Shown here one piece after another: positions 1-9,988 of a stretch of DNA of 10,032 bases. The notes beneath the pieces were generated by a model, which ran no database searches, had not been told where the DNA came from, and saw only the letters and a program-made list of their open reading frames with translations. Numbering within the stretch: the stretch's first letter is position 1; every line of letters starts with the position of its first letter. The translations under genes were made by a program, and so were the position numbers. This DNA comes from an uncultured Methanosarcinaceae archaeon (lineage in GTDB: Archaea > Halobacteriota > Methanosarcinia > Methanosarcinales > Methanosarcinaceae): NCBI GenBank assembly GCA_963727895.1, contig CAVSHT010000010.1:1-10032 (forward strand), read 5' to 3'.

Positions 1-1343
1 CAGTTTCTCTATATTCATTTTAGCGGCAATACCCTTTGCAGCACCCGGTACTGATGTGATTACACCAATATCGAGTTCCTCACGGAGTTCGCGCATAACA
101 TGTTCGTCTGCGAGATCCCTGATTTCTACATTGAGTTTCTTTGCCACGTACTGTTTTGCGTCTTTAATCCTCATATTCTTTGAGAATTCCATCCTTGACT
201 TAGGTCTCCGGCTGCTCCCTTCCTGTCATACCTGAAGCCATTATGTGGGAGATCGGCATACCCAGAGGGTCGCCGACCCCGATCTATATGCCGTCTACTC
301 CAGCAATCTCGACCATTGCTTTACTGGCTCTGGTAACTGCATCCACAGGCGGAGTTTCGAGCATGGGTATTCCACCGACACCCATACCCATATTCACGTG
401 ACATGGGATCAGAGCTTTCACTGCTCTTTATGAATGTGACAGCACGTGCAAGGTTCCAGGCTGAGGTCTTGCTCGTATTGGTGTTGCACACAGGTCCGAA
501 AACGTTTGCGCCTGCTTTTGCAATAAGAGGTGCCTGCTTGTGAGGCCAGAGCCCTGCAAGAGTGACTCGTCATATTGAAGGTTTCCATGCATACCAAGTA
601 CACACTCTCCAGCCATGCCTGCTTCGATATACATATCAGGGAACTCTTTCCTCAGAGCCTGGATTGCGTGAAGGGTTCCGTACATATGAGCGTCGCCTGC
701 AGCTGCAGTTGTGTCGAAGTTAACACCATCTGCACCCGAGGCAAAGAGTTTCTGCATGACCCATACAGTGTCCCTTGTAAGGTGTTCGGCTGCGTGTTCC
801 ATGGAATCCCAGGCTTCCTGAATCTTGAAAGCCTTCATCAGGTCTCCGGGGTTTTCGAAAGGTCCGTCAGGAGTATAATACAATCCCATGTTCGGCATTG
901 CGCCGTAAAAGAGGGATGATCATATCTGCTCGCACACTTCCATTGCCGGCATTCGTTTGAAACAACTGGCTTCACAGGTTTGAAACTGTAGTCGATGTGA
1001 CCGAGTTCCATTGTGTCTGCACCAAATGCCCTCTCGTGCATCATGCAGCCAACAAGACGGCTTGAGGGAATTCCTACACCACTGTTGCCCTGGTCACCGT
1101 CAAGCGGATTGTACCTATATCGTGAGTAACCGGTACTTCCATACCCTGCTCGACACTAATTTGCCGGGCTTTGTAATATCATAAGGATTTTTGCAAGCTT
1201 GTCGATTTCGTCGGAGGTCAGGGTAGGGATCTCGCCAAGATCTGCAGCATTTGCTGTACCTGCCTCAATCTCCGAAACAATTTTGTCTTTTTAAGGAAGG
1301 CGCGTTTACCGTCTCCCATTCTCAAAGCATATTCGGTTGCCAT
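1..1343 (-). CDS. mtbB: Dimethylamine:corrinoid methyltransferase MtbB (pyrrolysine-containing); 3' end runs off the window; several frameshifts
   Basis: ATG at 1343 gives [14 protein letters not shown]. Fragments [30 protein letters not shown] and [30 protein letters not shown], then [21 protein letters not shown] and [28 protein letters not shown], match my recollection of Methanosarcina MtbB in colinear order across frames. Confidence 0.96.
284..286 (-). other. In-frame amber (TAG) codon decoded as pyrrolysine in MtbB
   Basis: Minus strand reads gta gac ggc ata TAG atc ggg gtc ggc gac cct = VDGI-O-IGVGDP, the known Pyl site of MtbB. The frame continues after the TAG. Confidence 0.95.
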
Positions 1344-1349
1344 CCCTTT

Positions 1350-1997
1350 TCACTTCCCCACAAGCAGTTCTTTTGCTTTTTTAACAGCTTCGCTTGCGTT
1401 TTCTGCATAGCAGTCCGCACCTATTTTGTCAGCCCAGGCCTGAGTTGCAGGAGCGCCACCTACCATGACTTTTATTTTGTCCCTCAGACCTTCTTCTTTC
1501 AGAAGCTCAATTATGTCCCTTTGACCCTGCAGGGTTGTGGTCATAAGTGCAGAGATCCCTGATCATATTTGCATTGACTTCTTTTGCTTTCTCGACAAAA
1601 TTCTTTGTAGGAACGTCCCTGCCCAGGTCATAAACTTCAAAACCAGAAGAACTCGAAGCATGGTTGAGACAATCGACTTGCCTATATCATGCACGTCTCC
1701 TTCAACTGTGCCGTTTACAATAACTCCCAGTTTCTTTGTTCCGCTTCCTGCAGGCATATCAGCTTCAAGTAGCTTGACTCCTCAGTCATTGCACTGCCAT
1801 CATTACATGGCGGAAGGAAAAGTTTTCCTCTTTCAAACAAAACTCCTACCTGATTCATGCCAGCAGCAAGTCCCTTGTCAATAATTTCTGACGGCTCCAT
1901 AACCTTCTTTGCTTCAACCGCAGCAAGTACTGTATCTTTCTTACAGGAAATTACCGCGTCTGTAAGCTCATGAATCATTTCTTCTTTTAGATGCCAT
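1350..1997 (-). CDS. mtbC: Dimethylamine corrinoid protein MtbC (frameshifted; split into 3 ORFs in the track)
   Basis: ATG at 1997 follows GGAGG (2005-2009). Has a B12 cap region (GMNQVGVLFERGKLFLP) and B12-binding motifs GTVEGDVHDIGK (DxHxxG), SALMTTT and VMVGGAP. Stop lies 6 nt before the mtbB ATG. Confidence 0.9.
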
Positions 1998-2004
1998 TTT
2001 TTGA

Positions 2005-2009
2005 CCTCC
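2005..2009 (-). promoter_or_regulatory. Shine-Dalgarno GGAGG for mtbC
   Basis: Minus strand ttGGAGGtcaaaaaATGgca, 7-nt spacer. Confidence 0.75.
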
Positions 2010-2481
2010 AATTATCGTCAGAGTCTATCTTCAGTATTGGATTATAGAGATGAAGCCTGATATCTGATTATATCTATTAATAGGTGTAAATGATATATAT
2101 AGCCCAGCCTATGGTGTTTTTTCTTAATGGCATGGAAATTGAACTTCTCCAACGTCAGTAAAAACTCAGAAGAAATGAAAGGGATCTTTAGAAAGGGCTT
2201 AAATGATGAGATTTTTTGATTATGGAATAAATTTTAATGCCGTTAAAAATAGAAGCAGTAACAGCAATGAAATTAATCAGAAAATAAGCTCAGAAACTGA
2301 AAAGTATTGAGGCATTAAAGGTTTAACGTATATTTTTTTTGTAAACTTTGGTTAACCCTATAACTCAAACTAGAATTCTTTTTTAAATTTCTATATTTTA
2401 AAGCATTCTACTATTAAACATAATAAACGCCTACATGTAAAACAGTCTATTTATAAAAGAAGTTAAAAAACTAACATATTT

Positions 2482-3141
2482 TTATAGTCCAATAGGACAT
2501 GAGACCATACACAACCCACAAGAATGTTTTCTGTAAAGTGTTTTTATATAAAGGCTCCTTTTTTGATTACATAATTTATAGTTAATTAATTCTTCACGTT
2601 TTGTGTCTATACTCCATGTGTAACCAGTTAAAGCCTTATAAGGACAAGCATTAACGCACATATTACAATCTGTTGGACATTTACTCTTTGTAATTGGGTT
2701 TCCTATTGGCAAATCCGAATTAATTAGTATTGCAGATAGTCTTACTCTAGGTCCATATTTTTCTGTAATCAAAACACCGTTTTTACCTATCCATCCTAGA
2801 CCTGCATTAACACTTGCAAATTTAAAAGAGAATGGTGCAATTAGAGTTTTTTCATTTGATTGTGAAGCAGGTGGTATATAATATTGGATTTTGGATTTAT
2901 TTAATACAGTGGTGATCTCTTCTAATAACAAATTGATCCCGTCATGTGCGTCATCTATTAACGTTTCAAGTTTCTCTTCTTTATAACTATTTATACTCAA
3001 TAATTCTATATGAGGAACAGCAAAAACTAATGCACATTTATAATCTAATTTATATTCACTAAAATTTATATTTGAAATGCCATATAGAACATCAGGGTTT
3101 TTCTTAAAAATCCCCAAAATAGTATTGTATAAGTCGCTCAT
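2482..3141 (-). CDS. Epoxyqueuosine reductase (QueG)-like / reductive-dehalogenase-fold 2x[4Fe-4S] protein
   Basis: Intact 219-aa ORF with AGLGWIGKNGVLITEKYGPRVRL, CPTDCNMCVNACP and C-terminal CGLCMVSCP motifs typical of this superfamily. Confidence 0.85.
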   Translation of the reverse strand: MSDLYNTILGIFKKNPDVLYGISNINFSEYKLDYKCALVFAVPHIELLSINSYKEEKLETLIDDAHDGINLLLEEITTVLNKSKIQYYIPPASQSNEKTLIAPFSFKFASVNAGLGWIGKNGVLITEKYGPRVRLSAILINSDLPIGNPITKSKCPTDCNMCVNACPYKALTGYTWSIDTKREELINYKLCNQKRSLYIKTLYRKHSCGLCMVSCPIGL

Positions 3142-3510
3142 GTATATTGATCCTTTGTAAAAATAATCTTCTTATCTTCCTATTTTGAGAATGTTTTTGT
3201 TGCAAAAATCGTATATAAAAGTAAAAAGGCAGTGTACTTGAAATTCTGTGGAAATACTATGGAATACTATAATACACTCTTGTTGATCGCCTAAAATATA
3301 ATCTACCTGTTTTGTATATTGATGTTGAAGAAGAATTTGAGAGTCTGGGAAGTTTATTGACTGTATGTATACCTGTACATGTACATGGTTTCCAGTGTCA
3401 TGCAAATTTAATTCTTGCACATAGTCTTTGGCAGCTTTCCATCAGCACATAAGGATTCAGAGCTTAAGTGATAAATAACTAAATGTCCTTGACAAAAGTT
3501 ACACTTACTT

Positions 3511-3957
3511 TTAGTGCATGTTTTGATCGCCCAGTACACAAACTCTAATTGTCCCGGTACTTGTCTGAAAATCCGTACAGATATCAGGATGAACAGGGAT
3601 TTTTTCGGGAGTATCTTCTTTTTTCTTAAACTGGCAAAAGAAGTCGCCTTCAAAACGGTATTTTCTGAAAAGCTCACAGGTTTCACAGAGGCAGCCCTTT
3701 TTTTTTTTTTCCTCTCCTATGACTATGCCTCCTCGAGCACAAAACATACCCTTATCTCCCCCCGGATAAGCAGAGCAGTATTTGCAGAGACAGGCTTTCA
3801 AGCAATGATATGAACCGCAGATTTCAAAATATCTTCCATATTCTTCTTTAGTTCTCTGGATAATATCGCCAGTCTCTTTAGAGGATCTTTCTGCAGTTTC
3901 TGTATTTTCTACATTTTTTATTGAGATTTCAGAGTTCAGAGTATTCCACCTGTACAA
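3511..3957 (-). CDS. Cys-rich DUF2769-like methanogen protein (start uncertain)
   Basis: Pattern CLCxxCxxY..MFCARG..GCLCxxC..Y..FFC resembles DUF2769. The start is TTG at 3957 or a later codon after AGGTGG. Confidence 0.75.
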   Translation of the reverse strand: MYRWNTLNSEISIKNVENTETAERSSKETGDIIQRTKEEYGRYFEICGSYHCLKACLCKYCSAYPGGDKGMFCARGGIVIGEEKKKKGCLCETCELFRKYRFEGDFFCQFKKKEDTPEKIPVHPDICTDFQTSTGTIRVCVLGDQNMH

Positions 3958-4076: not shown

Positions 4077-4950
4077 ATGGGATTTAATCAGGTAGCTGAA
4101 AGCGACGAAACGATTCTTGATGAAGCACTCGAAAGGCAGCGAATTCTGGAAACTGTGATTAACAACAGCCCTGTAATGGCTTTTCTATGGACCCCGGAAG
4201 AGGACTGGCCTGCCAAATATGTCTCGGAAAACGTAACTCAGATTGGGTACAGCGCAGAGGATTTCCTCACAGGCAGGATAATGTATGCAAATATTGTCCA
4301 TTCCGAGGATATAGATAGAGTAAGAAAAGAACTCACCAGATGCTGTGAAACTGGGGAAGACGATTTTGTAAATAGATACAGGATTATTACAGGTAAGGGA
4401 GAGATCCGCTGGGTCGAAGAAAAGACCTTTATCCAGCGCGATGAAAAAGGAAATGTGGTTAATTTCCAGGGCATAGTCAGGGACGTTACTTCCGAGATCA
4501 AAAATGAAAGAGCATTGCGCGACGCCCTTGAGAGCCAGAAAGCCCTGATGGAAAAACAAAAAGCTCTGCTCGAGCGGCAGAGAGCACTCGAAACAGTAAT
4601 TAATAATAGTCCTATGATAGTTTTTCTCTGGAAAGCAGAGAAATACTGGCCCACTCTTTATGTATCAGAAAACGTCCGACAGTTCGGGTATGCTCCGGAA
4701 GATTTTATCTCTGGAAGGATTCTCTACGGAAAAATTATCCACCCTGAAGATCTTCTCCTTGTGGAACTGGAACTTGAGGAGAACTGTGAAGAAGGCGGAA
4801 AAGAGTTCGGCCGTCGAGTATCGCATCCTGACACAGACCGGTGAGGTTCGCTGGGTCGAAGAAAAAACATTTATCCAGCGCAATCTGGAAGGAAAGGTTA
4901 CCAACTTCCAGGGCATTATCGAAGATATAACCGAAAAGGTAAAAGCTTGA
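4077..4950 (+). CDS. Tandem PAS/PAC (PAS_3-type) sensor protein, about 290 aa, one +1 frameshift near 4810
   Basis: Two homologous repeats (LETVINNSP..FLW..WP..YVSENV..GY..EDF..GRI.Y..I.H.ED and YRI.T..GE.RWVEEKTFIQR...G.V.NFQGI). ORFs 4077..4844 and 4660..4950 join to complete the second PAC. GGAGG lies upstream. Confidence 0.88.
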
Positions 4951-5082
4951 AAAATACCCGATGATCCTTATAACAGGTTTTTCACGTTTTTAAAATCAGA
5001 TTCATTCTTCATTTTCCCTTTTTTGCCTCTTTTACATTTCCATTTCCTCTCTATTTAAGTGTTTATATTACGAAGCGTAAAA

Positions 5083-5105
5083 CCCCTGAGTCTTTAGCTC
5101 AGGGG
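5083..5105 (+). repeat. IS left-end hairpin (TnpA binding site)
   Basis: 8-bp perfect inverted repeat with a TCTTTAG loop, preceded by the putative guide tetranucleotide AAAA. Confidence 0.88.
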
Positions 5106-5120
5106 ATATAAGCGTCAACT

Positions 5121-5516
5121 TCAACCCTGATTCCTTATGTAATATTCTGCTGCCTCTTTACTAACATTTCCTATAGTAGACGCAAAATATCCATCACTCC
5201 ATAACGTATTTTCACCCCAATAATATTTTTCCAGATATTCATTTTGTGTTTTCCATAACCTGTTAGTAGATTCTTGTTTCAATTTTCTGACAATTGACAA
5301 AACACTAACTTTTGGCTCACTCTTAATCAGGAAATGAATGTGGTCTTTGTCTGTTTCCATTTCAAGGATTTCAAAGTTTGACTCCTTTGAAATGTCAATC
5401 ATAATCTGTTTAAGCTCTTCGCTAATCGGTTCAAGTATGACTTTTCGGTATTTGCAAACAAAAATAATGTGGTACATTAACAAAAATTTGCTATGATTCC
5501 GTGTTTCACACTTCAT
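5121..5516 (-). CDS. tnpA: IS200-type Y1 HUH transposase TnpA
   Basis: YHIIFVCKYRK, HUH motif DHIHFL, LWSDGYFAST and catalytic Y in YIRNQG. ATG at 5516 preferred over TTG at 5525. Confidence 0.95.
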   Translation of the reverse strand: MKCETRNHSKFLLMYHIIFVCKYRKVILEPISEELKQIMIDISKESNFEILEMETDKDHIHFLIKSEPKVSVLSIVRKLKQESTNRLWKTQNEYLEKYYWGENTLWSDGYFASTIGNVSKEAAEYYIRNQG

Positions 5517-5523
5517 ATTTACC

Positions 5524-5562
5524 AAAAAGTATATATGTTGTTAAAGCATATAATACCTTTTT
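5524..5562. promoter_or_regulatory. Overlapping divergent BRE/TATA-like promoters for tnpB (+) and tnpA (-)
   Basis: Plus strand AAAAAGTATATATG (5524-5537) and minus strand AAAAAGGTATTATATG (5562-5547), each about 26-32 nt from the corresponding ATG. Confidence 0.55.
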
Positions 5563-6675
5563 ATGATGAAAGCGTTCAAGTTTAGACTCTATCCTACAAC
5601 TACACAAGCTGTTCAATTGAATCAGCACATTGGTAGCTGTAGGTTTGTCTACAATTGGGCGTTGGATCAAAAAATAAAAACCTACGAACAGACAGGAAAA
5701 TCAATTTCCAGATTTGACTTAAACAAAAAGATTCCTGTCTTGAAAGCTTCTAATGAATGGTTAGGAGAAGTTAACTCTCAATCTTTGCAGGGAATGACCA
5801 AACAGGTTGAATCTGCTTTCACTCGGTTTTTCAGAGAGAAGACCGGATTCCCTAAGTTCAAGTCTAAGAAAAATCCTATACAATCTTTTCCCGTACCTCA
5901 GCATTACACTGTAGACTTTGAAAAAAACACTATCAAGCTTCCTAAAATAGAACCAATTAAAGCAGTTTTTCACCGGAAGTTTGAAGGTGAATTGAAAACC
6001 GCTACTGTTTCAAGGACGTGTAAAGGACATTACTACATTAGTATCCTTGTTGAAGATGGGAAAGAACTTCCTACAAAACAGAAGTATTCAGAATCTACTA
6101 CAGTGGGTATAGATGTCGGGATTAAGGATTTTGCTGTACTCTCTACAGGTGAAAAGATTGAGAACCCTAAATACCTGAAAAACTCACTTCAGAGGCTTAA
6201 AGTCCTTCAGAAAAGAGTATCATGTAAGCAGAAAGGCTCTAAGAACAGGGCAAAAGCTAAACAAAGGCTTGCTGTGCTCCATGATAAAATAACTAATCAG
6301 AGAAATGATTTCCAGAACAAACTCTCTTTTAAACTGATATGCGAAAACCAAGCTGTAGCTCTGGAAACTCTGAATGTAAAAGGTATGGTCAAGAATCATC
6401 ATTTAGCTCAAGCTATTAGTGATTCTGCATGGAGTAGCTTTGTAACAAAATTAGAGTATAAAGCCGAATGGTTGGGAAAAACTATCTTGAGAATAGGACA
6501 GTTTGAGCCTTCTTCAAAGCTCTGTAGCGTATGTGGATACCGCAATAAAGAGCTTCAGTTAAAAGACAGAGAGTGGACTTGTCCTGATTGTAAAACAAAA
6601 CATGATAGAGACATTAATGCCGCTATCAATATCAAAAAATTTGCTCTCATAGATCAAAATCTAATTGGATCATAA
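5563..6675 (+). CDS. tnpB: RNA-guided endonuclease TnpB (IS200/IS605 OrfB)
   Basis: 370 aa. N-terminal KAFKFRLYP..G.CRFVYN, RuvC-I GIDVG, RuvC-II LETL, Zn finger CSVC..CPDC, RuvC-III DRDINAAINI. All three catalytic acidic residues are present. Confidence 0.96.
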   Translation: MMKAFKFRLYPTTTQAVQLNQHIGSCRFVYNWALDQKIKTYEQTGKSISRFDLNKKIPVLKASNEWLGEVNSQSLQGMTKQVESAFTRFFREKTGFPKFKSKKNPIQSFPVPQHYTVDFEKNTIKLPKIEPIKAVFHRKFEGELKTATVSRTCKGHYYISILVEDGKELPTKQKYSESTTVGIDVGIKDFAVLSTGEKIENPKYLKNSLQRLKVLQKRVSCKQKGSKNRAKAKQRLAVLHDKITNQRNDFQNKLSFKLICENQAVALETLNVKGMVKNHHLAQAISDSAWSSFVTKLEYKAEWLGKTILRIGQFEPSSKLCSVCGYRNKELQLKDREWTCPDCKTKHDRDINAAINIKKFALIDQNLIGS

Positions 6676-6792
6676 CACCTGCGGAACGCGGGGAAGAGCC
6701 CGTTGACTTGCCCTCGATAGAGGGAGGAATGACACAGGAAGCCACTCAGTCTTTAGCTGAGTGGTAGTTCACTCGGTGAAAGGAATATGACT
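6676..6792 (+). ncRNA. Predicted TnpB omegaRNA/reRNA (scaffold to 6772 plus flanking guide; 5' end probably inside tnpB)
   Basis: Lies between the tnpB stop and the right end. Stems CCTGCG-GAA-CGCGGG (6678-6692), CCCTC-GATA-GAGGG (6711-6724) and the RE hairpin. By TnpB precedent the guide is the DNA 3' of TCAC. Confidence 0.7.
6742..6764 (+). repeat. IS right-end hairpin
   Basis: 8-bp perfect inverted repeat with the same TCTTTAG loop, preceded by GAAG and followed by TAGTTCAC. Confidence 0.9.
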
Positions 6793-7078
6793 CTCACTCT
6801 TGACATAAAGGGTGATTTCACGCCACAGGAGGTAAGTGAAGTCATTCGTTCAGCGCTTGATCAGAATGAGCGCGTTGCAAAATACAAAATAAAAAAGTAT
6901 TCGGAGTATTTGTGAGAATTACGAAAAAAAATATGGGATGGATTCAGACCTTTTTATGGAAAAATTCGAAGCCGGAAAACTGGAGGACGACAGTGAATTT
7001 TTTGACTGGTATGCAGCAAAAAGGGGACTTGATATCTGGAATAAAAGGCTAAAAATCATCTCATCAATTGATGTATAA
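6787..7078 (+). CDS. ~96-aa FFDWYAAK-family protein, paralog 1 (antitoxin-like); one extra base near 6904; absent from the ORF track
   Basis: Manual translation MTLTLDIKGDFTPQEVSEVIRSALDQNERVAKYKIKKYS/ICENYEKKYGMDSDLFMEKFEAGKLEDDSEFFDWYAAKRGLDIWNKRLKIISSIDV* aligns end to end with 8124..8414 and 9701..9988. Confidence 0.88.
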
Positions 7079-7455
7079 ACTCTACCTTTAACCTCTCAAA
7101 ACTAGCTTCAGTCAAGACAGTACCTCTCCTCTCCACGCAAACTATATATATTATGGCATTCAAATAGTAATATTGTATAAAAGTCTCTAAATTGGAGAGT
7201 GTTTTTTCAGGTAATGCTGCACCAGGGATCAATTCGAGTGAACCTTCAGATGCAACTATTGAAGTTTCCAACTTTTTATCTCGTTTTATAAGCTTTCTAT
7301 AAGCGATACGTAATACGTTTTAAAGCGGGGTAGTTGCTTTATTCAAGCCGGTTGGATCTTAAAAAATACCTGAACTAAATTTAAATCACAAAAATAAACC
7401 AGAATAAAAAACGAAAATACTCTTTAGGGCCTTTATTCGCGAGGAATGAAACAAG

Positions 7456-7762
7456 ATGTCAGAAGAATCCGATGATTCAGACAGTAGTGATAGTAGTGGA
7501 AGTCGTCAGAAAATGCTCACAGCAGCCGGAATGGTCCTGTGTGTAATACAGTTTGCCTTCTTCGTGTACATGATTTTAATGTTCATGGAGATGGACTTTG
7601 CTGAGGGGTTTAAGTTCATGCTGCTTGCATATTCTTCAGCGTTCGTTTATAAGAACATGGAGAACTCCGGGAGTGATCCGGCAAATAACACGAAACTGAT
7701 GGCTGTGTGGATTTTTCCGGATCCACACCTTTTATATCTCATCTGTTCTGTTTCATATTTAA
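7456..7762 (+). CDS. Small membrane protein (2-3 TM) with acidic Ser/Asp N-terminus; probable +1 frameshift near 7717
   Basis: GAGGA lies upstream. Hydrophobic segments MLTAAGMVLCVIQFAFFVYMILMF and FKFMLLAYSSAFVY. Shifting frame gives IHTFYISSVLFHI* (TAA 7760-7762) just before a T-rich tract. The unshifted ORF runs to 7821 through that tract. Confidence 0.6.
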
Positions 7763-7840
7763 CCTATTTTTATTCTTTTTTTGATTTCTTTTCGTTCAAC
7801 CATAGCTATTTTACTTTTTAGTTTTTAAGAGCTAAAATGG

Positions 7841-7878
7841 TGAAGTATACAATTAATATGGACTGAAGTATACAATTA
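7841..7878 (+). repeat. Perfect 15-bp direct repeat TGAAGTATACAATTA x2 (23-bp period), candidate operator
   Basis: Copies at 7841-7855 and 7864-7878, each containing the palindrome GTATAC. Confidence 0.7.
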
Positions 7879-8123
7879 TGTGTCCGTGAATTTTGTGCCA
7901 GTCTAAAAACGTATTTCTAAAGACTGCGGGTAAACAGTACAAAAAAGAGTTCCTTATTATTTTTTAAATATGTGGGTGAGATTAAAATACTCACATTTTT
8001 TACCTGAGTCTCAGGCTTCTATAATTTCCCCGATTTTTCAGTGAATATAACTCATTAATAACTAGAAAAAGAGATATATAGGATTAATTTTTAGTATCAA
8101 GCAATAAATGTTGTGGGATAAAC

Positions 8124-8414
8124 ATGGATCTTACATTGCAGATTGATACCGATTACTCGCTGCAGGAAGCAAGTGAGGTTGTTCGCGCGGCTCTGGAACA
8201 TGAGAAACATCTTGCGAAATATAAGGTACAGCGCTATTCCATGATCTGCGATGAATTTGAAGACCAGTATGACCTGATATCTACAGAATTAATAAAAAAA
8301 TTTGAAGCTGGCGAATTTATAGACGACGACAAGTTTTTTGACTGGTATGCCGCAAAAAAAGGGCTTGACCACTGGAAGAAAAAGCTGAAGGTCCTTGATT
8401 CTGTTAAGTTCTAA
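8124..8414 (+). CDS. 96-aa FFDWYAAK-family protein, paralog 2 (antitoxin-like)
   Basis: Intact ORF with GGGAT RBS-like motif and AAAAGAGATATATA promoter-like motif upstream. Homologous to the other two copies. Confidence 0.9.
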   Translation: MDLTLQIDTDYSLQEASEVVRAALEHEKHLAKYKVQRYSMICDEFEDQYDLISTELIKKFEAGEFIDDDKFFDWYAAKKGLDHWKKKLKVLDSVKF

Positions 8415-8479
8415 CTGCCGATTATGTGAGATGCAAACTTAATCTGCACCCTTTACATTCTTAATCCATTTTCACATCT

Positions 8480-8570
8480 ATTTCTTTACTCAATTTTTTT
8501 CTTTCTTTTTCAGATATATTTCTTCTAATTTACCTCCGTTTACTTTCTAATTTCCTCTTTTTCATCTTTT
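8480..8570 (+). terminator. Pyrimidine/oligo-T tract, probable archaeal terminator region after paralog 2
   Basis: Several T5-T7 runs downstream of the 8414 stop. Confidence 0.45.
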
Positions 8571-8662
8571 CGCTATGCTGTAACGATGCCATACTTTGGA
8601 GATAAAGTTAAGTAGTCGGGTCTGCTATCTTTTATCAGTATAATTTTTTCTAAGGTGTTCAG

Positions 8663-9448
8663 ATGAATGATCAGGTTAAATTGACAGAACTTGTTTTTCT
8701 GTCTGATAAAAGGAAGAAAATTCTTCTTTTTCTGAAAGATAAGCCAAGGACAATGGCTGAAATTCAGGAACATCTTTCCTCAGGCCCTGTTTCAATCCTT
8801 CCCCAGATTAAAAAGTTAAAAGAAGGTAAGCTTGTTGTACAGAAGGGGCATACATATGAGCTCTCTTTAATGGGAGTGGTAATTGCTGGACAAGATGCCT
8901 CCTTTCCTGGACACTCTCGAGACTATAGAAGAAAACTTTGACTACTGGACGAAAAGAAATCTTGAAGGGATTCCTCCTTTTTTACGCAAAAGAATTTTTG
9001 AACTGAAAAACTGCAAACTCATCCTCCCAGATATGAGCCATATGTTCGAACTCAGTCCTGAATTCGTAGAAAAGCTTCATCTTCTCCACGCATATTCTCG
9101 GTTTTGCTTCCTATTTTCACCCTTCTTTCGTTTCACTCTATCCGGAACTCGCAAAAAAAGGAGTGGAAATTTCTTTAATGTTTACAGAGCCAGTAATTCA
9201 GAGGTTCAAAAAGGATTATAGGGAAGAACTGTTAATCTTCCTGAATTTTGAAAATGTCAGGGTATTTGTCTTTCCACGCGGATGCTAAAATTGCAGATTT
9301 TACAGTAACTGATAGATTTTTCCTGCTTACTCTTTTTTCCAGGGAGAAAGTCTTTGAACACGAAAGCCTGCTCAGTTCCGAAACTGAAGCCCTTAAATGG
9401 GGTACCGACCTTTTTTTACATATGCTAAAAGAAGCAGCTCAGGTTTAA
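8663..9448 (+). CDS. Winged-HTH transcriptional regulator (ArsR-like N-terminus plus DUF1724/FilR1-middle-like domain), about 260 aa, three +1 frameshifts
   Basis: LVFLSDKRKKILLFLKDKPRTMAEI..ILPQIKKL..YELS..G, then KMPPFLDTLETIEENFDYW, a hidden frame ASYFHPSFVSLYPELAKKGVEISLMFTEPV, then FTVTDRFFLLTLF..ALKWG. Typical Methanosarcina regulator family. Shifts near 8886, 9080 and 9273. Confidence 0.85.
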
Positions 9449-9700
9449 TAGGTTGGGTCCAATGTCCTGAAGCATTGATTGTAATTTTTAACTTCCCAAT
9501 CAAAATTTTGTTTTTCCTATCAATATAAAAGGTGGTAAGAAAAACTGAAGTAGTTATGAAAATAAGCATGGAATTAAGCTCGTGAGCTGAAAAGTCTGGA
9601 AGGAAATTTTAGCTGATATATTTCCGGTCGTTTATTTTCATAATTACTTTATACGAAGCAAACAATAATGAAATAAAAAACTTCTTTTATTGGGATAGAC

Positions 9701-9988
9701 ATGAGTTTCACGCTTAATATTGAGACTGGTTTCTCACCTCAGGAAGTATGTGAGGCTATCCGTTCTGCTCTGGAACATGAAAAGCATGTTGCAAAATACA
9801 AGATCAAGCGATATTCCAAAATCTGTCAGGATTACGAAGAGAAGTTCGGGTACAGCTCAAGTGAACTCAGGGGGATGTACGAAGCCGGAAAAATAGGAGA
9901 TAGTGACTTCTTCGACTGGTATGCGGCGAAAAGAGAGCTTGAGCACTGGAATAAAAAGCTTGAGATTCTCTCAGGGATTTCTCTTTAA
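9701..9988 (+). CDS. 95-aa FFDWYAAK-family protein, paralog 3 (antitoxin-like)
   Basis: Intact ORF with GGGAT upstream, TTTATA at 9648-9653 and a T-rich tract after the stop. Homologous to the other two copies. Confidence 0.9.
   Translation: MSFTLNIETGFSPQEVCEAIRSALEHEKHVAKYKIKRYSKICQDYEEKFGYSSSELRGMYEAGKIGDSDFFDWYAAKRELEHWNKKLEILSGISL

Follow-up and report, generated by a model that had tools for sequence, protein, structure and literature searches.

Orphan and chromosomal antitoxins acting as anti-addiction modules are a known concept. The TumE-TumA superfamily of type II toxin-antitoxin systems, in which TumA is the small helical partner of TumE (DUF6516), was defined in 2023, and the pairs tested came from six gammaproteobacteria (PMC10584680, Durairaj et al. 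2023, Nature). Here, we analyzed contig CAVSHT010000010.1 of an uncultured Methanosarcinaceae archaeon over its full 10,032 bases (hereafter, the window), with three paralogous genes, P1, P2, and P3, as the main subject. A first-pass annotation of the sequence had proposed these genes as a candidate for an undescribed system of toxin-less antitoxins. The explanation put forward here, to which we assign a probability of roughly 60%, is that P1 is the orphan of a lost tumA-tumE pair, and that P2 and P3 are older, toxin-less duplicates within a conserved cluster. The window is the entire contig C10 of the source genome, G000 (19 contigs, 84% complete), and the genome surveys spanned 251 Methanosarcinales genomes, including 44 of Methanosarcina. 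Throughout, G denotes sampled genomes, C contigs of G000, L loci, X public sequencing runs, and g and f genera and families, respectively.

The TumA-like family, tumE, and P1

Searching the genome with P2 retrieved P3 at 53% identity (E 4e-31) and both halves of P1 at 45% identity (E 8e-17 and 2e-7), and the common motifs recur in alignment A1, where E15, A23, C42, W74, Y75, A77, and K78 are among the invariant columns. These identities and motifs bear out the relatedness of the three paralogues that had been proposed from manual comparison. The accompanying description of three same-strand genes of 95 to 96 amino acids (aa) stands for P2 and P3, both open frames on the plus strand, but not for P1, whose first frame (from 6787) meets a TGA after 42 residues, with the remaining 56 residues, including the FFDWYAAK motif, lying in another frame from 6908. 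No plus-strand open reading frame (ORF) abuts P1, P2, or P3, in agreement with the lack of a coupled partner noted earlier, and the genes for a membrane protein and a winged helix-turn-helix (wHTH) regulator do lie between the paralogues.

The likeness to TumA antitoxins, suggested from the motif in the first-pass annotation, was substantiated as remote homology and by the tumE linkage described below. The NCBIfam TumA model (NF045776, an equivalog model with a curated cutoff of 100 bits) matched the C-terminal part of P1 with 32 bits (E 1e-7) and P2 with 16.9 bits (E 0.005), in both cases over the TumA core, at about model positions 19 to 59, and P3 is tied to TumA only via the family profile. 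Built from 19 members and searched against 1.84 billion proteins, this profile recovered 418 cluster representatives at E≤1e-3. Among the relatives scanned, 80 of 83 matched TumA at E<0.01, with values as low as 6e-14 among single-domain proteins and with all scores below 100 bits. Pfam searches with P1 to P3 returned chance-level rows only (DUF1896 at 0.05, TMP_3 at 0.034), and a sequence search of PDB with the family profile gave a best E of 0.7. The AlphaFold2 (AF2) model of P2 (predicted local distance difference test score, 90.9) has an extended N terminus followed by helices at residues 13 to 49, 53 to 61, and 68 to 93. When this model was compared with known antitoxin folds (RHH, RelB/ParD-like, and others), Foldseek found nothing in PDB at E≤1e-3, and a wide VIA-align search returned unrelated helical hairpins with a best Z of 8.6, which is within the background for helical models. 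The ESM Atlas yielded unnamed Chloroflexota and Cyanobacteriota clusters at 0.91 to 0.92 and no named family. Isoelectric points, taken as a hint of DNA binding, were uninformative, all proteins being acidic. The sources name these proteins only as "hypothetical protein," and the literature held no paper for guessed Methanosarcina acetivorans locus tags or Q8TLN4, nor for DUF6516 together with Methanosarcina.

Gene linkage is stronger evidence than the TumA model scores. TumE (Pfam PF20126) is common in Methanosarcinales and often multicopy, being present in 111 of the 251 genomes, and all 30 Methanosarcinales TumE loci fetched have a family ORF directly upstream of tumE on the same strand, which supports the pairing of the motif with DUF6516/TumE toxins suggested in the first-pass annotation. 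The called ORFs overlap, mostly by 1 to 8 nucleotides (nt), or are at most 1 nt apart in 27 of these loci; the other three reflect start-codon choices or a tumE with a stop. The nearest nonarchaeal relatives are those of Chloroflexota. Bacterial loci were found with a narrow, nine-row alignment, and 29 of 57, nearly all from Chloroflexota, display the same tumA-like/tumE arrangement; Pfam recognized TumE in five of five downstream ORFs checked from such loci and in none of the 11 other downstream ORFs checked. P1, P2, and P3 are thus best placed as a Methanosarcinales branch of the TumA antitoxin superfamily, and we regard this assignment, together with the history of P1 outlined below, as highly probable. 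The branch is distinct, unannotated, and missed by curated models, and it serves as the usual TumE partner in Methanosarcinales and many Chloroflexota.

Some loci of the survey deserve a separate mention. G163 encodes a second TumE type (124 aa; L126 1616-2292, minus strand) that is overlapped by a preceding 106-aa ORF with a more distant form of the motif (EKKYGMDFSAFEKR...EEWDDFIIW), which the A1 profile missed at E≤1e-3. In a Chloroflexota locus (L062 1826-2590), a gene with TIR and EAD7 domains begins 25 nt after the TumA-like gene, at the usual place of tumE.

P1 shares 85% identity with its tumE-linked counterpart in G175. There and in G208, the P1-type gene has a 4-nt overlap with a TumE gene of 123 aa, and the pair recurs in G165. 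P1 is therefore read as the remnant of an ordinary tumA-tumE pair, and the operon of its homologs with a cognate toxin in G175 and G208 contradicts the proposal that all three genes make up one undescribed system. The abutting tumE that characterizes the P1 type in these relatives is absent from the window. Indeed, genome-wide searches with the Pfam profile and tblastn revealed TumE neither in the window nor in G000, so that P1 is an orphaned antitoxin and the earlier designation as toxin-less is upheld; for G000, this absence tells little about the organism behind C10, because G000 is 84% complete and C10 seemingly derives from another population (see below).

The surroundings of the membrane gene in relatives illustrate how such an orphan could arise. 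G186 has a partial P1 followed by a tumE with an in-frame TAG (G186:C1:3283847-3284074, minus strand) and then the membrane gene. In G140, an ORF adjoining the membrane gene combines the last part of P1 with that of TumE (L004 9568-9903, minus strand), as expected of a deletion fusion. Only P1 remnants persist beside the membrane gene of G245 and G162, and G238 and G187 carry an intact P1 with no tumE at its position. Stops or fragments affect TumE in G186, G201, G218, and G238; in the last of these, a second tumA-like/tumE pair, 340 kb away, is broken into four pieces (L129 1365-2048, minus strand). A single genus thus shows the pair at several stages of decay, i.e., intact, with a broken toxin, as a fusion remnant, and as an orphan antitoxin. 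The window is collinear with G238 over 6775 to 7779, and tblastn with two Methanosarcina TumE proteins detected no trace of tumE in the spacer between P1 and the membrane gene (7078 to 7455). According to the explanation that we propose, P1 would be the antitoxin gene of a tumA-tumE pair once located just upstream of the membrane gene, and tumE would have been deleted without trace in the lineage of the window, leaving P1 orphaned. In this contig, an insertion sequence (IS) of the IS200/IS605 type would additionally have replaced the DNA upstream of P1.

P2 and P3 in their conserved cluster

In a tree of 55 family members, the P2 clade (nine rows, support 100/99) and the P3 clade (nine rows, 98/94) are sisters (100/97), and none of their 18 rows stands beside tumE. 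Both are nested in a 29-row clade (99/96) together with the tumE-linked P1-type rows of Methanosarcina and family f4, and the 26 rows outside this clade are all tumE-linked. Given this nested position and the tumE-linked outside rows, P2 and P3 are most simply read as descendants of a tumE-linked tumA. In keeping with the tree rows, none of the 12 loci read had tumE beside a P2- or P3-type gene. The family occurs in 43 of the 44 Methanosarcina genomes, as opposed to 16 for TumE, and G187, whose proteins are named by the sources as Methanosarcina acetivorans, contains five family copies and no TumE. The median ratio of nonsynonymous to synonymous substitution rates (dN/dS) is 0.175 for P2 and 0.152 for P3. 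It is very probable that P2 and P3 function without a resident TumE, and a fair reading is that the idea of a domesticated or anti-addiction orphan, first raised for all three genes, holds for P2 and P3 only.

P2 and P3 flank a gene of the FilR1/Msr architecture, a wHTH domain plus FilR1_middle. Its pieces in the window match HVO_A0261_N (1.8e-5) and FilR1_middle (2.3e-8), and intact orthologues match FilR1_middle at 1e-29 to 9e-33. The order membrane gene, P2, and wHTH gene was found in 10 of 10 Methanosarcina loci read, followed in some by a gene for a PKD-repeat protein, and then by P3 and fae. In genus g7, a P3-type copy precedes the wHTH gene and a P1-type copy follows the membrane gene. 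P2 and P3 each have a separate conserved upstream region. In that of P2, a 17-nt element (TTTTTAGTATCAGCAAC) stands between an A/T-rich box and the start codon; it occurs once in the window and as two or three direct repeats in five relatives (L002, L004, L005, L008, and L044). The region is a putative promoter or operator, and the 17-nt element could act as an operator or simply be a repeat of the 5′ leader. By eye, no operator motif common to the upstream regions of P2, P3, the wHTH gene, and the membrane gene was seen. Complex prediction for the wHTH protein and P2 (G238-headed alignments A2, with 67 rows, and A3, with 40 rows) scored 0.00 in two runs in which the controls were not folded, and provides no evidence either way.

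We propose that P2 and P3 are older tumA duplicates whose link to tumE would have been lost before Methanosarcina diversified, and that purifying selection would keep them fixed in the order 81-aa membrane protein, P2, FilR1/Msr wHTH regulator, PKD protein (in some), P3, and fae. Each protein would form a helical hairpin and bind a partner via the signature FExKY..S..F..KFE.G.L.D...FFDWYAAK. For the P1 type, this partner would be TumE, whereas P2 and P3 could be small protein- or DNA-binding regulators acting with the neighboring regulator or membrane protein, with no need for TumE. A regulatory, domesticated role of P2 and P3, rather than that of a stand-by antitoxin, is in our estimate a little short of an even chance. 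A more specific version, in which the two proteins would be partner-binding co-regulators or anti-regulators of the FilR1/Msr factor in a toxin-independent, Methanosarcina-specific module that also includes the small, acidic-tailed membrane protein and lies beside one-carbon genes such as fae, is doubtful. If true, it would mean that a type II antitoxin has been domesticated into core archaeal gene regulation.

Alternatively, P2 and P3 could be stand-by antitoxins, serving anti-addiction or immunity by neutralizing incoming TumE in trans as tumA-tumE modules enter and decay. The distribution of the toxin suits this idea, given its frequency and copy number in the order, its patchy and often broken state in Methanosarcina, and its occurrence on 11 cyanobacterial plasmid records. 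So do the scores against a profile of the tumE-linked members outside the 29-row clade, with medians of 78 bits for P2, 90 for P3, and 101 for the P1 type. However, the two paralogues occupy fixed chromosomal places and have their own conserved upstream regions, and dN/dS remains at about 0.15 to 0.18 in genomes without an intact TumE (G187 and G238). Moreover, the loss of tumE is followed by decay of the P1 type, the one most closely related to the partner of the resident toxin. Mobile DNA offered no support either, since tblastn with P2 found no family member in plasmid records, and pattern scans of IMG/VR viral contigs gave 56 matches with no relative among them. A stand-by function is thus the most serious competitor but, in our view, unlikely, and a TumE-independent, regulator-associated role is favored for P2 and P3.

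Several observations weigh against the explanation as a whole. P1, P2, and P3 all score below the 100-bit cutoff, so that none belongs to TumA proper, and P3 did not match the TumA model at E≤0.1. As modeled, the fold is a generic helical hairpin without a telling structural match. In G090, P3 and fae are located about 215 kb from the wHTH gene and the rest of the cluster; gene order kept in one genus and its sister genus may reflect inheritance only, and no motif common to the P2 and P3 upstream regions was seen by eye in the alignments. Finally, the only moderately lower profile scores indicate that P2 and P3 may still be able to bind TumE.

The contig, its frame breaks, and the genes around the paralogues

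Counterparts at 72 to 83% identity exist elsewhere in G000 for all parts of C10, and an orthologous cluster lies on C3 (Table 1). Two copies of the membrane gene set G000 apart from all others among the 42 Methanosarcina genomes with a match, and in trees the C10 genes group with G238, whereas the C3 copy of P2 groups with G163. On these three counts, the "five copies in one genome" probably stem from two organisms, and C10 probably derives from a second Methanosarcina population and was mis-binned into G000. No public sequencing run contained more than 0.21 of the sampled words.

Frame breaks were mapped by reference to G238, the closest complete relative, one protein of which is identical to a protein named Methanosarcina hadiensis. 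P1 has one extra base near 6903 to 6907 with respect to its intact G238 orthologue; one at 7669 in the membrane gene turns the 81-aa ORF of the relatives into one of 121 aa; and extra bases near 8888, 9084, and 9279 leave the wHTH gene in three frames. All five breaks are single-base insertions within 3.2 kb, and nonsense changes are absent. Three of the extra bases are missing from contigs of other runs, namely, those at 6903 (X2 record 13, 2 mismatches in 147 nt), at 7669 (X1 record 2, 7 mismatches in 572 nt; X13 record 10, 1 mismatch in 256 nt; in the RNA library X13, two contigs in all), and at 9279 (X2 record 20, only about 91% alike), the contigs without the bases at 6903 and 7669 being 98 to 99.6% alike to the window. 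For 8888 and 9084, there was no contradicting contig among the matches listed; among these same matches, excess bases in the window make up 9 of the 12 indels, some of them in noncoding DNA. Because contigs of other runs lack the extra bases and most of the listed indels are an excess of the window, the breaks are likely insertion errors of assembly. This contig comparison, along with a dN/dS of 0.11 to 0.26 for the window P1 read through against its orthologues, indicates that the P1, membrane, and wHTH genes are probably intact in the organism.

The breaks might instead be real and the cluster copy a decaying duplicate, as five insertions in so short a distance and the true decay of P1 in several other genomes could suggest. 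This is a doubtful reading in view of the restriction to single-base insertions, the near-identical contigs lacking those at 6903 and 7669, the same base excess in noncoding DNA, and the constrained read-through sequence of P1. Annotation of contig C10 should thus allow for likely single-base insertion errors and a probable mis-binning.

The membrane protein has no Pfam family. Among the 251 Methanosarcinales genomes, its gene was found only in genera g1 (41 of 44), g7 (6 of 6), and g14 (1 of 2), and by our own reading, a family gene lies 180 to 830 bp downstream in 39 of these 48 genomes. In the metatranscriptome library X13, contigs with one to three mismatches cover 7194 to 7360 and 7440 to 7844, that is, the membrane gene and part of the upstream spacer. 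They give a weak hint of membrane-gene transcription, as DNA is possible in such libraries. No X13 RNA contig covers P1, P2, or P3, which says nothing on their expression.

This neighborhood invites the idea that P2, perhaps along with P3, serves as antitoxin to a toxin other than TumE, namely, the 81-aa membrane protein upstream, whose gene is single copy and confined to the genera of the P2/P3 cluster, and whose product lacks a known family. We judge this improbable, since the genes are 300 to 600 bp apart, have their own conserved upstream regions, and form no overlapping pair. Furthermore, it is a P1-type copy, not P2, that follows the membrane gene in g7, and in G217 and G241, which do have the membrane gene, a family match is weak or missing altogether.

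Upstream of P1, the window harbors an IS200/IS605 element with intact tnpA and tnpB, the combination of a Y1 TnpA with TnpB placing it in this family (Y1_Tnp 4.5e-37, OrfB_IS605 4.7e-30, and Cas12f1-like_TNB 5.5e-23; OrfB_IS605, Cas12f1-like_TNB, and HTH_OrfB_IS605 all above cutoffs). Its right end, with a predicted fold of −43.4 kcal/mol (z −2.35), lies 14 nt upstream of the start codon of P1. Alignments with the copies on C15 and C5 run from 5062 to 6772-6774, and copies elsewhere in G000 are 73 to 80% alike; a right-end depth of 43 to 72 in run X1 indicates that the element is multicopy in that sample. Contigs of X1, X2, and X3 diverge from the window at 6772/6773, where X2 has other upstream DNA; by eye, this DNA resembles the native P1 upstream region of G238, whereas the left flank of the element does not, and similarity to relatives begins only at 6775. 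From these comparisons, the element appears to have replaced the native upstream DNA of P1. Because it intervenes, and because its left flank is unlike native P1 upstream DNA, the PAS-PAS gene on its other side is not a conserved neighbor of P1. The sensor role once suggested for the PAS-PAS protein also fails the synteny comparison, with no PAS gene at that place in any of the 11 other loci read. A single integrated system, with PAS-PAS sensing, wHTH control, and the three paralogues as hetero-oligomeric output, is therefore highly improbable, even though its genes lie on one strand within 6 kb and Msr-type regulators (HTH plus DUF1724) are described near sensor kinases in PMC11784639, the more so as P1 belongs to a separate tumA-tumE unit.

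The PAS-PAS gene itself (4077-4950) is in two frames (ORFs 4077-4844 and 4660-4950), probably through a single-base error of the same kind as in the cluster. Between it and the methylamine genes, an A+T-rich stretch (2482-3957, minus strand; GC 0.28 to 0.32) encodes a 219-aa Fe-S cluster protein, with Fer4 matches close to or under the cutoffs, and a DUF2769 protein. At the left end (1-2011, minus strand), Rfam PYLIS_2, the pyrrolysine insertion element of mtbB, matches 189-286 (minus strand) with 82 bits, so that a dimethylamine methyltransferase gene with an in-frame TAG lies at the contig end. Next to this mtbB-type gene is a corrinoid-protein gene in three frame pieces (1350-2011), and the left end has its counterpart on C9 at 75 to 81% identity. 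These left-end genes were first taken as mtaB/mtaC, an assignment dropped upon the Rfam match to the mtbB PYLIS element.

Table 1. Features of the window around the paralogues, and the orthologous cluster elsewhere in G000
Feature	Position	Strand	Description
IS200/IS605 element	~5062-6773	.	tnpA 5121-5525 (-), tnpB 5563-6675 (+), structured right end 6676-6773
P1	6787-7077	+	Antitoxin gene, TumA type, tumE-linked kind; one extra base splits the frame; no tumE
Spacer	7078-7455	.	From P1 to the membrane gene; place of tumE in G186 and of the remnant in G140; collinear with G238 (85%)
Membrane gene	7456-7821	+	Two-helix membrane protein with an acidic, Ser/Asp-rich N terminus; 81 aa in relatives
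P2 upstream region	8040-8123	+	A/T-rich box, element TTTTTAGTATCA(GCAAC) (one to three direct repeats in relatives), and GGGATAAAC before ATG; from an alignment of 11 upstream regions; putative promoter or operator
P2	8124-8414	+	TumA-family paralogue; open frame, 96 aa
wHTH regulator	8663-9448	+	FilR1/Msr type, HVO_A0261_N wHTH plus FilR1_middle/DUF1724; in three frames
P3	9701-9988	+	TumA-family paralogue; open frame, 95 aa; contig end 44 nt further
Orthologous cluster on C3 of G000			Membrane gene, P2′, intact 263-aa wHTH gene, P3′, fae, DUF1699, second regulator, flavodoxin

Comparison with described systems

Two toxin-less descendants of tumA appear to have been kept through the whole history of a genus beside a methanogen-type regulator, which makes them a testable case of what becomes of an antitoxin after toxin loss. 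Methanosarcina acetivorans has genetic tools. The regulator gene flanked by P2 and P3 matches exactly the architecture (HTH plus DUF1724) given for the Msr/FilR1 regulators of Methanosarcina in PMC11784639. A description of an Msr regulator with flanking TumA-like genes was not found in the literature covered here (DUF6516 with Methanosarcina, the guessed locus tags, and Q8TLN4).

The paralogues share with TumE-TumA systems the small helical protein and the core that matches TumA positions of about 19 to 59. In relatives, the gene immediately precedes tumE, with an overlap, an arrangement in line with the DUF6516 gene downstream of its partner in PMC10584680. They differ from TumA in score (32, 17, and none for P1, P2, and P3, respectively, against the 100-bit cutoff) and in length (about 96 aa against a model of 76 positions), and from the pairs tested in being archaeal rather than gammaproteobacterial. 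Besides, tumE is missing from the window and never adjoins P2 or P3.

Like anti-addiction orphans, P2 and P3 are antitoxin homologues without a cognate toxin gene, in a setting where the toxin family comes and goes. Unlike them, they are fixed across the genus as two conserved clades and remain under purifying selection in toxin-free genomes. Since P2 and P3 are fixed, duplicated, and selected in genomes that lack the toxin, a new role fits better than stand-by immunity.

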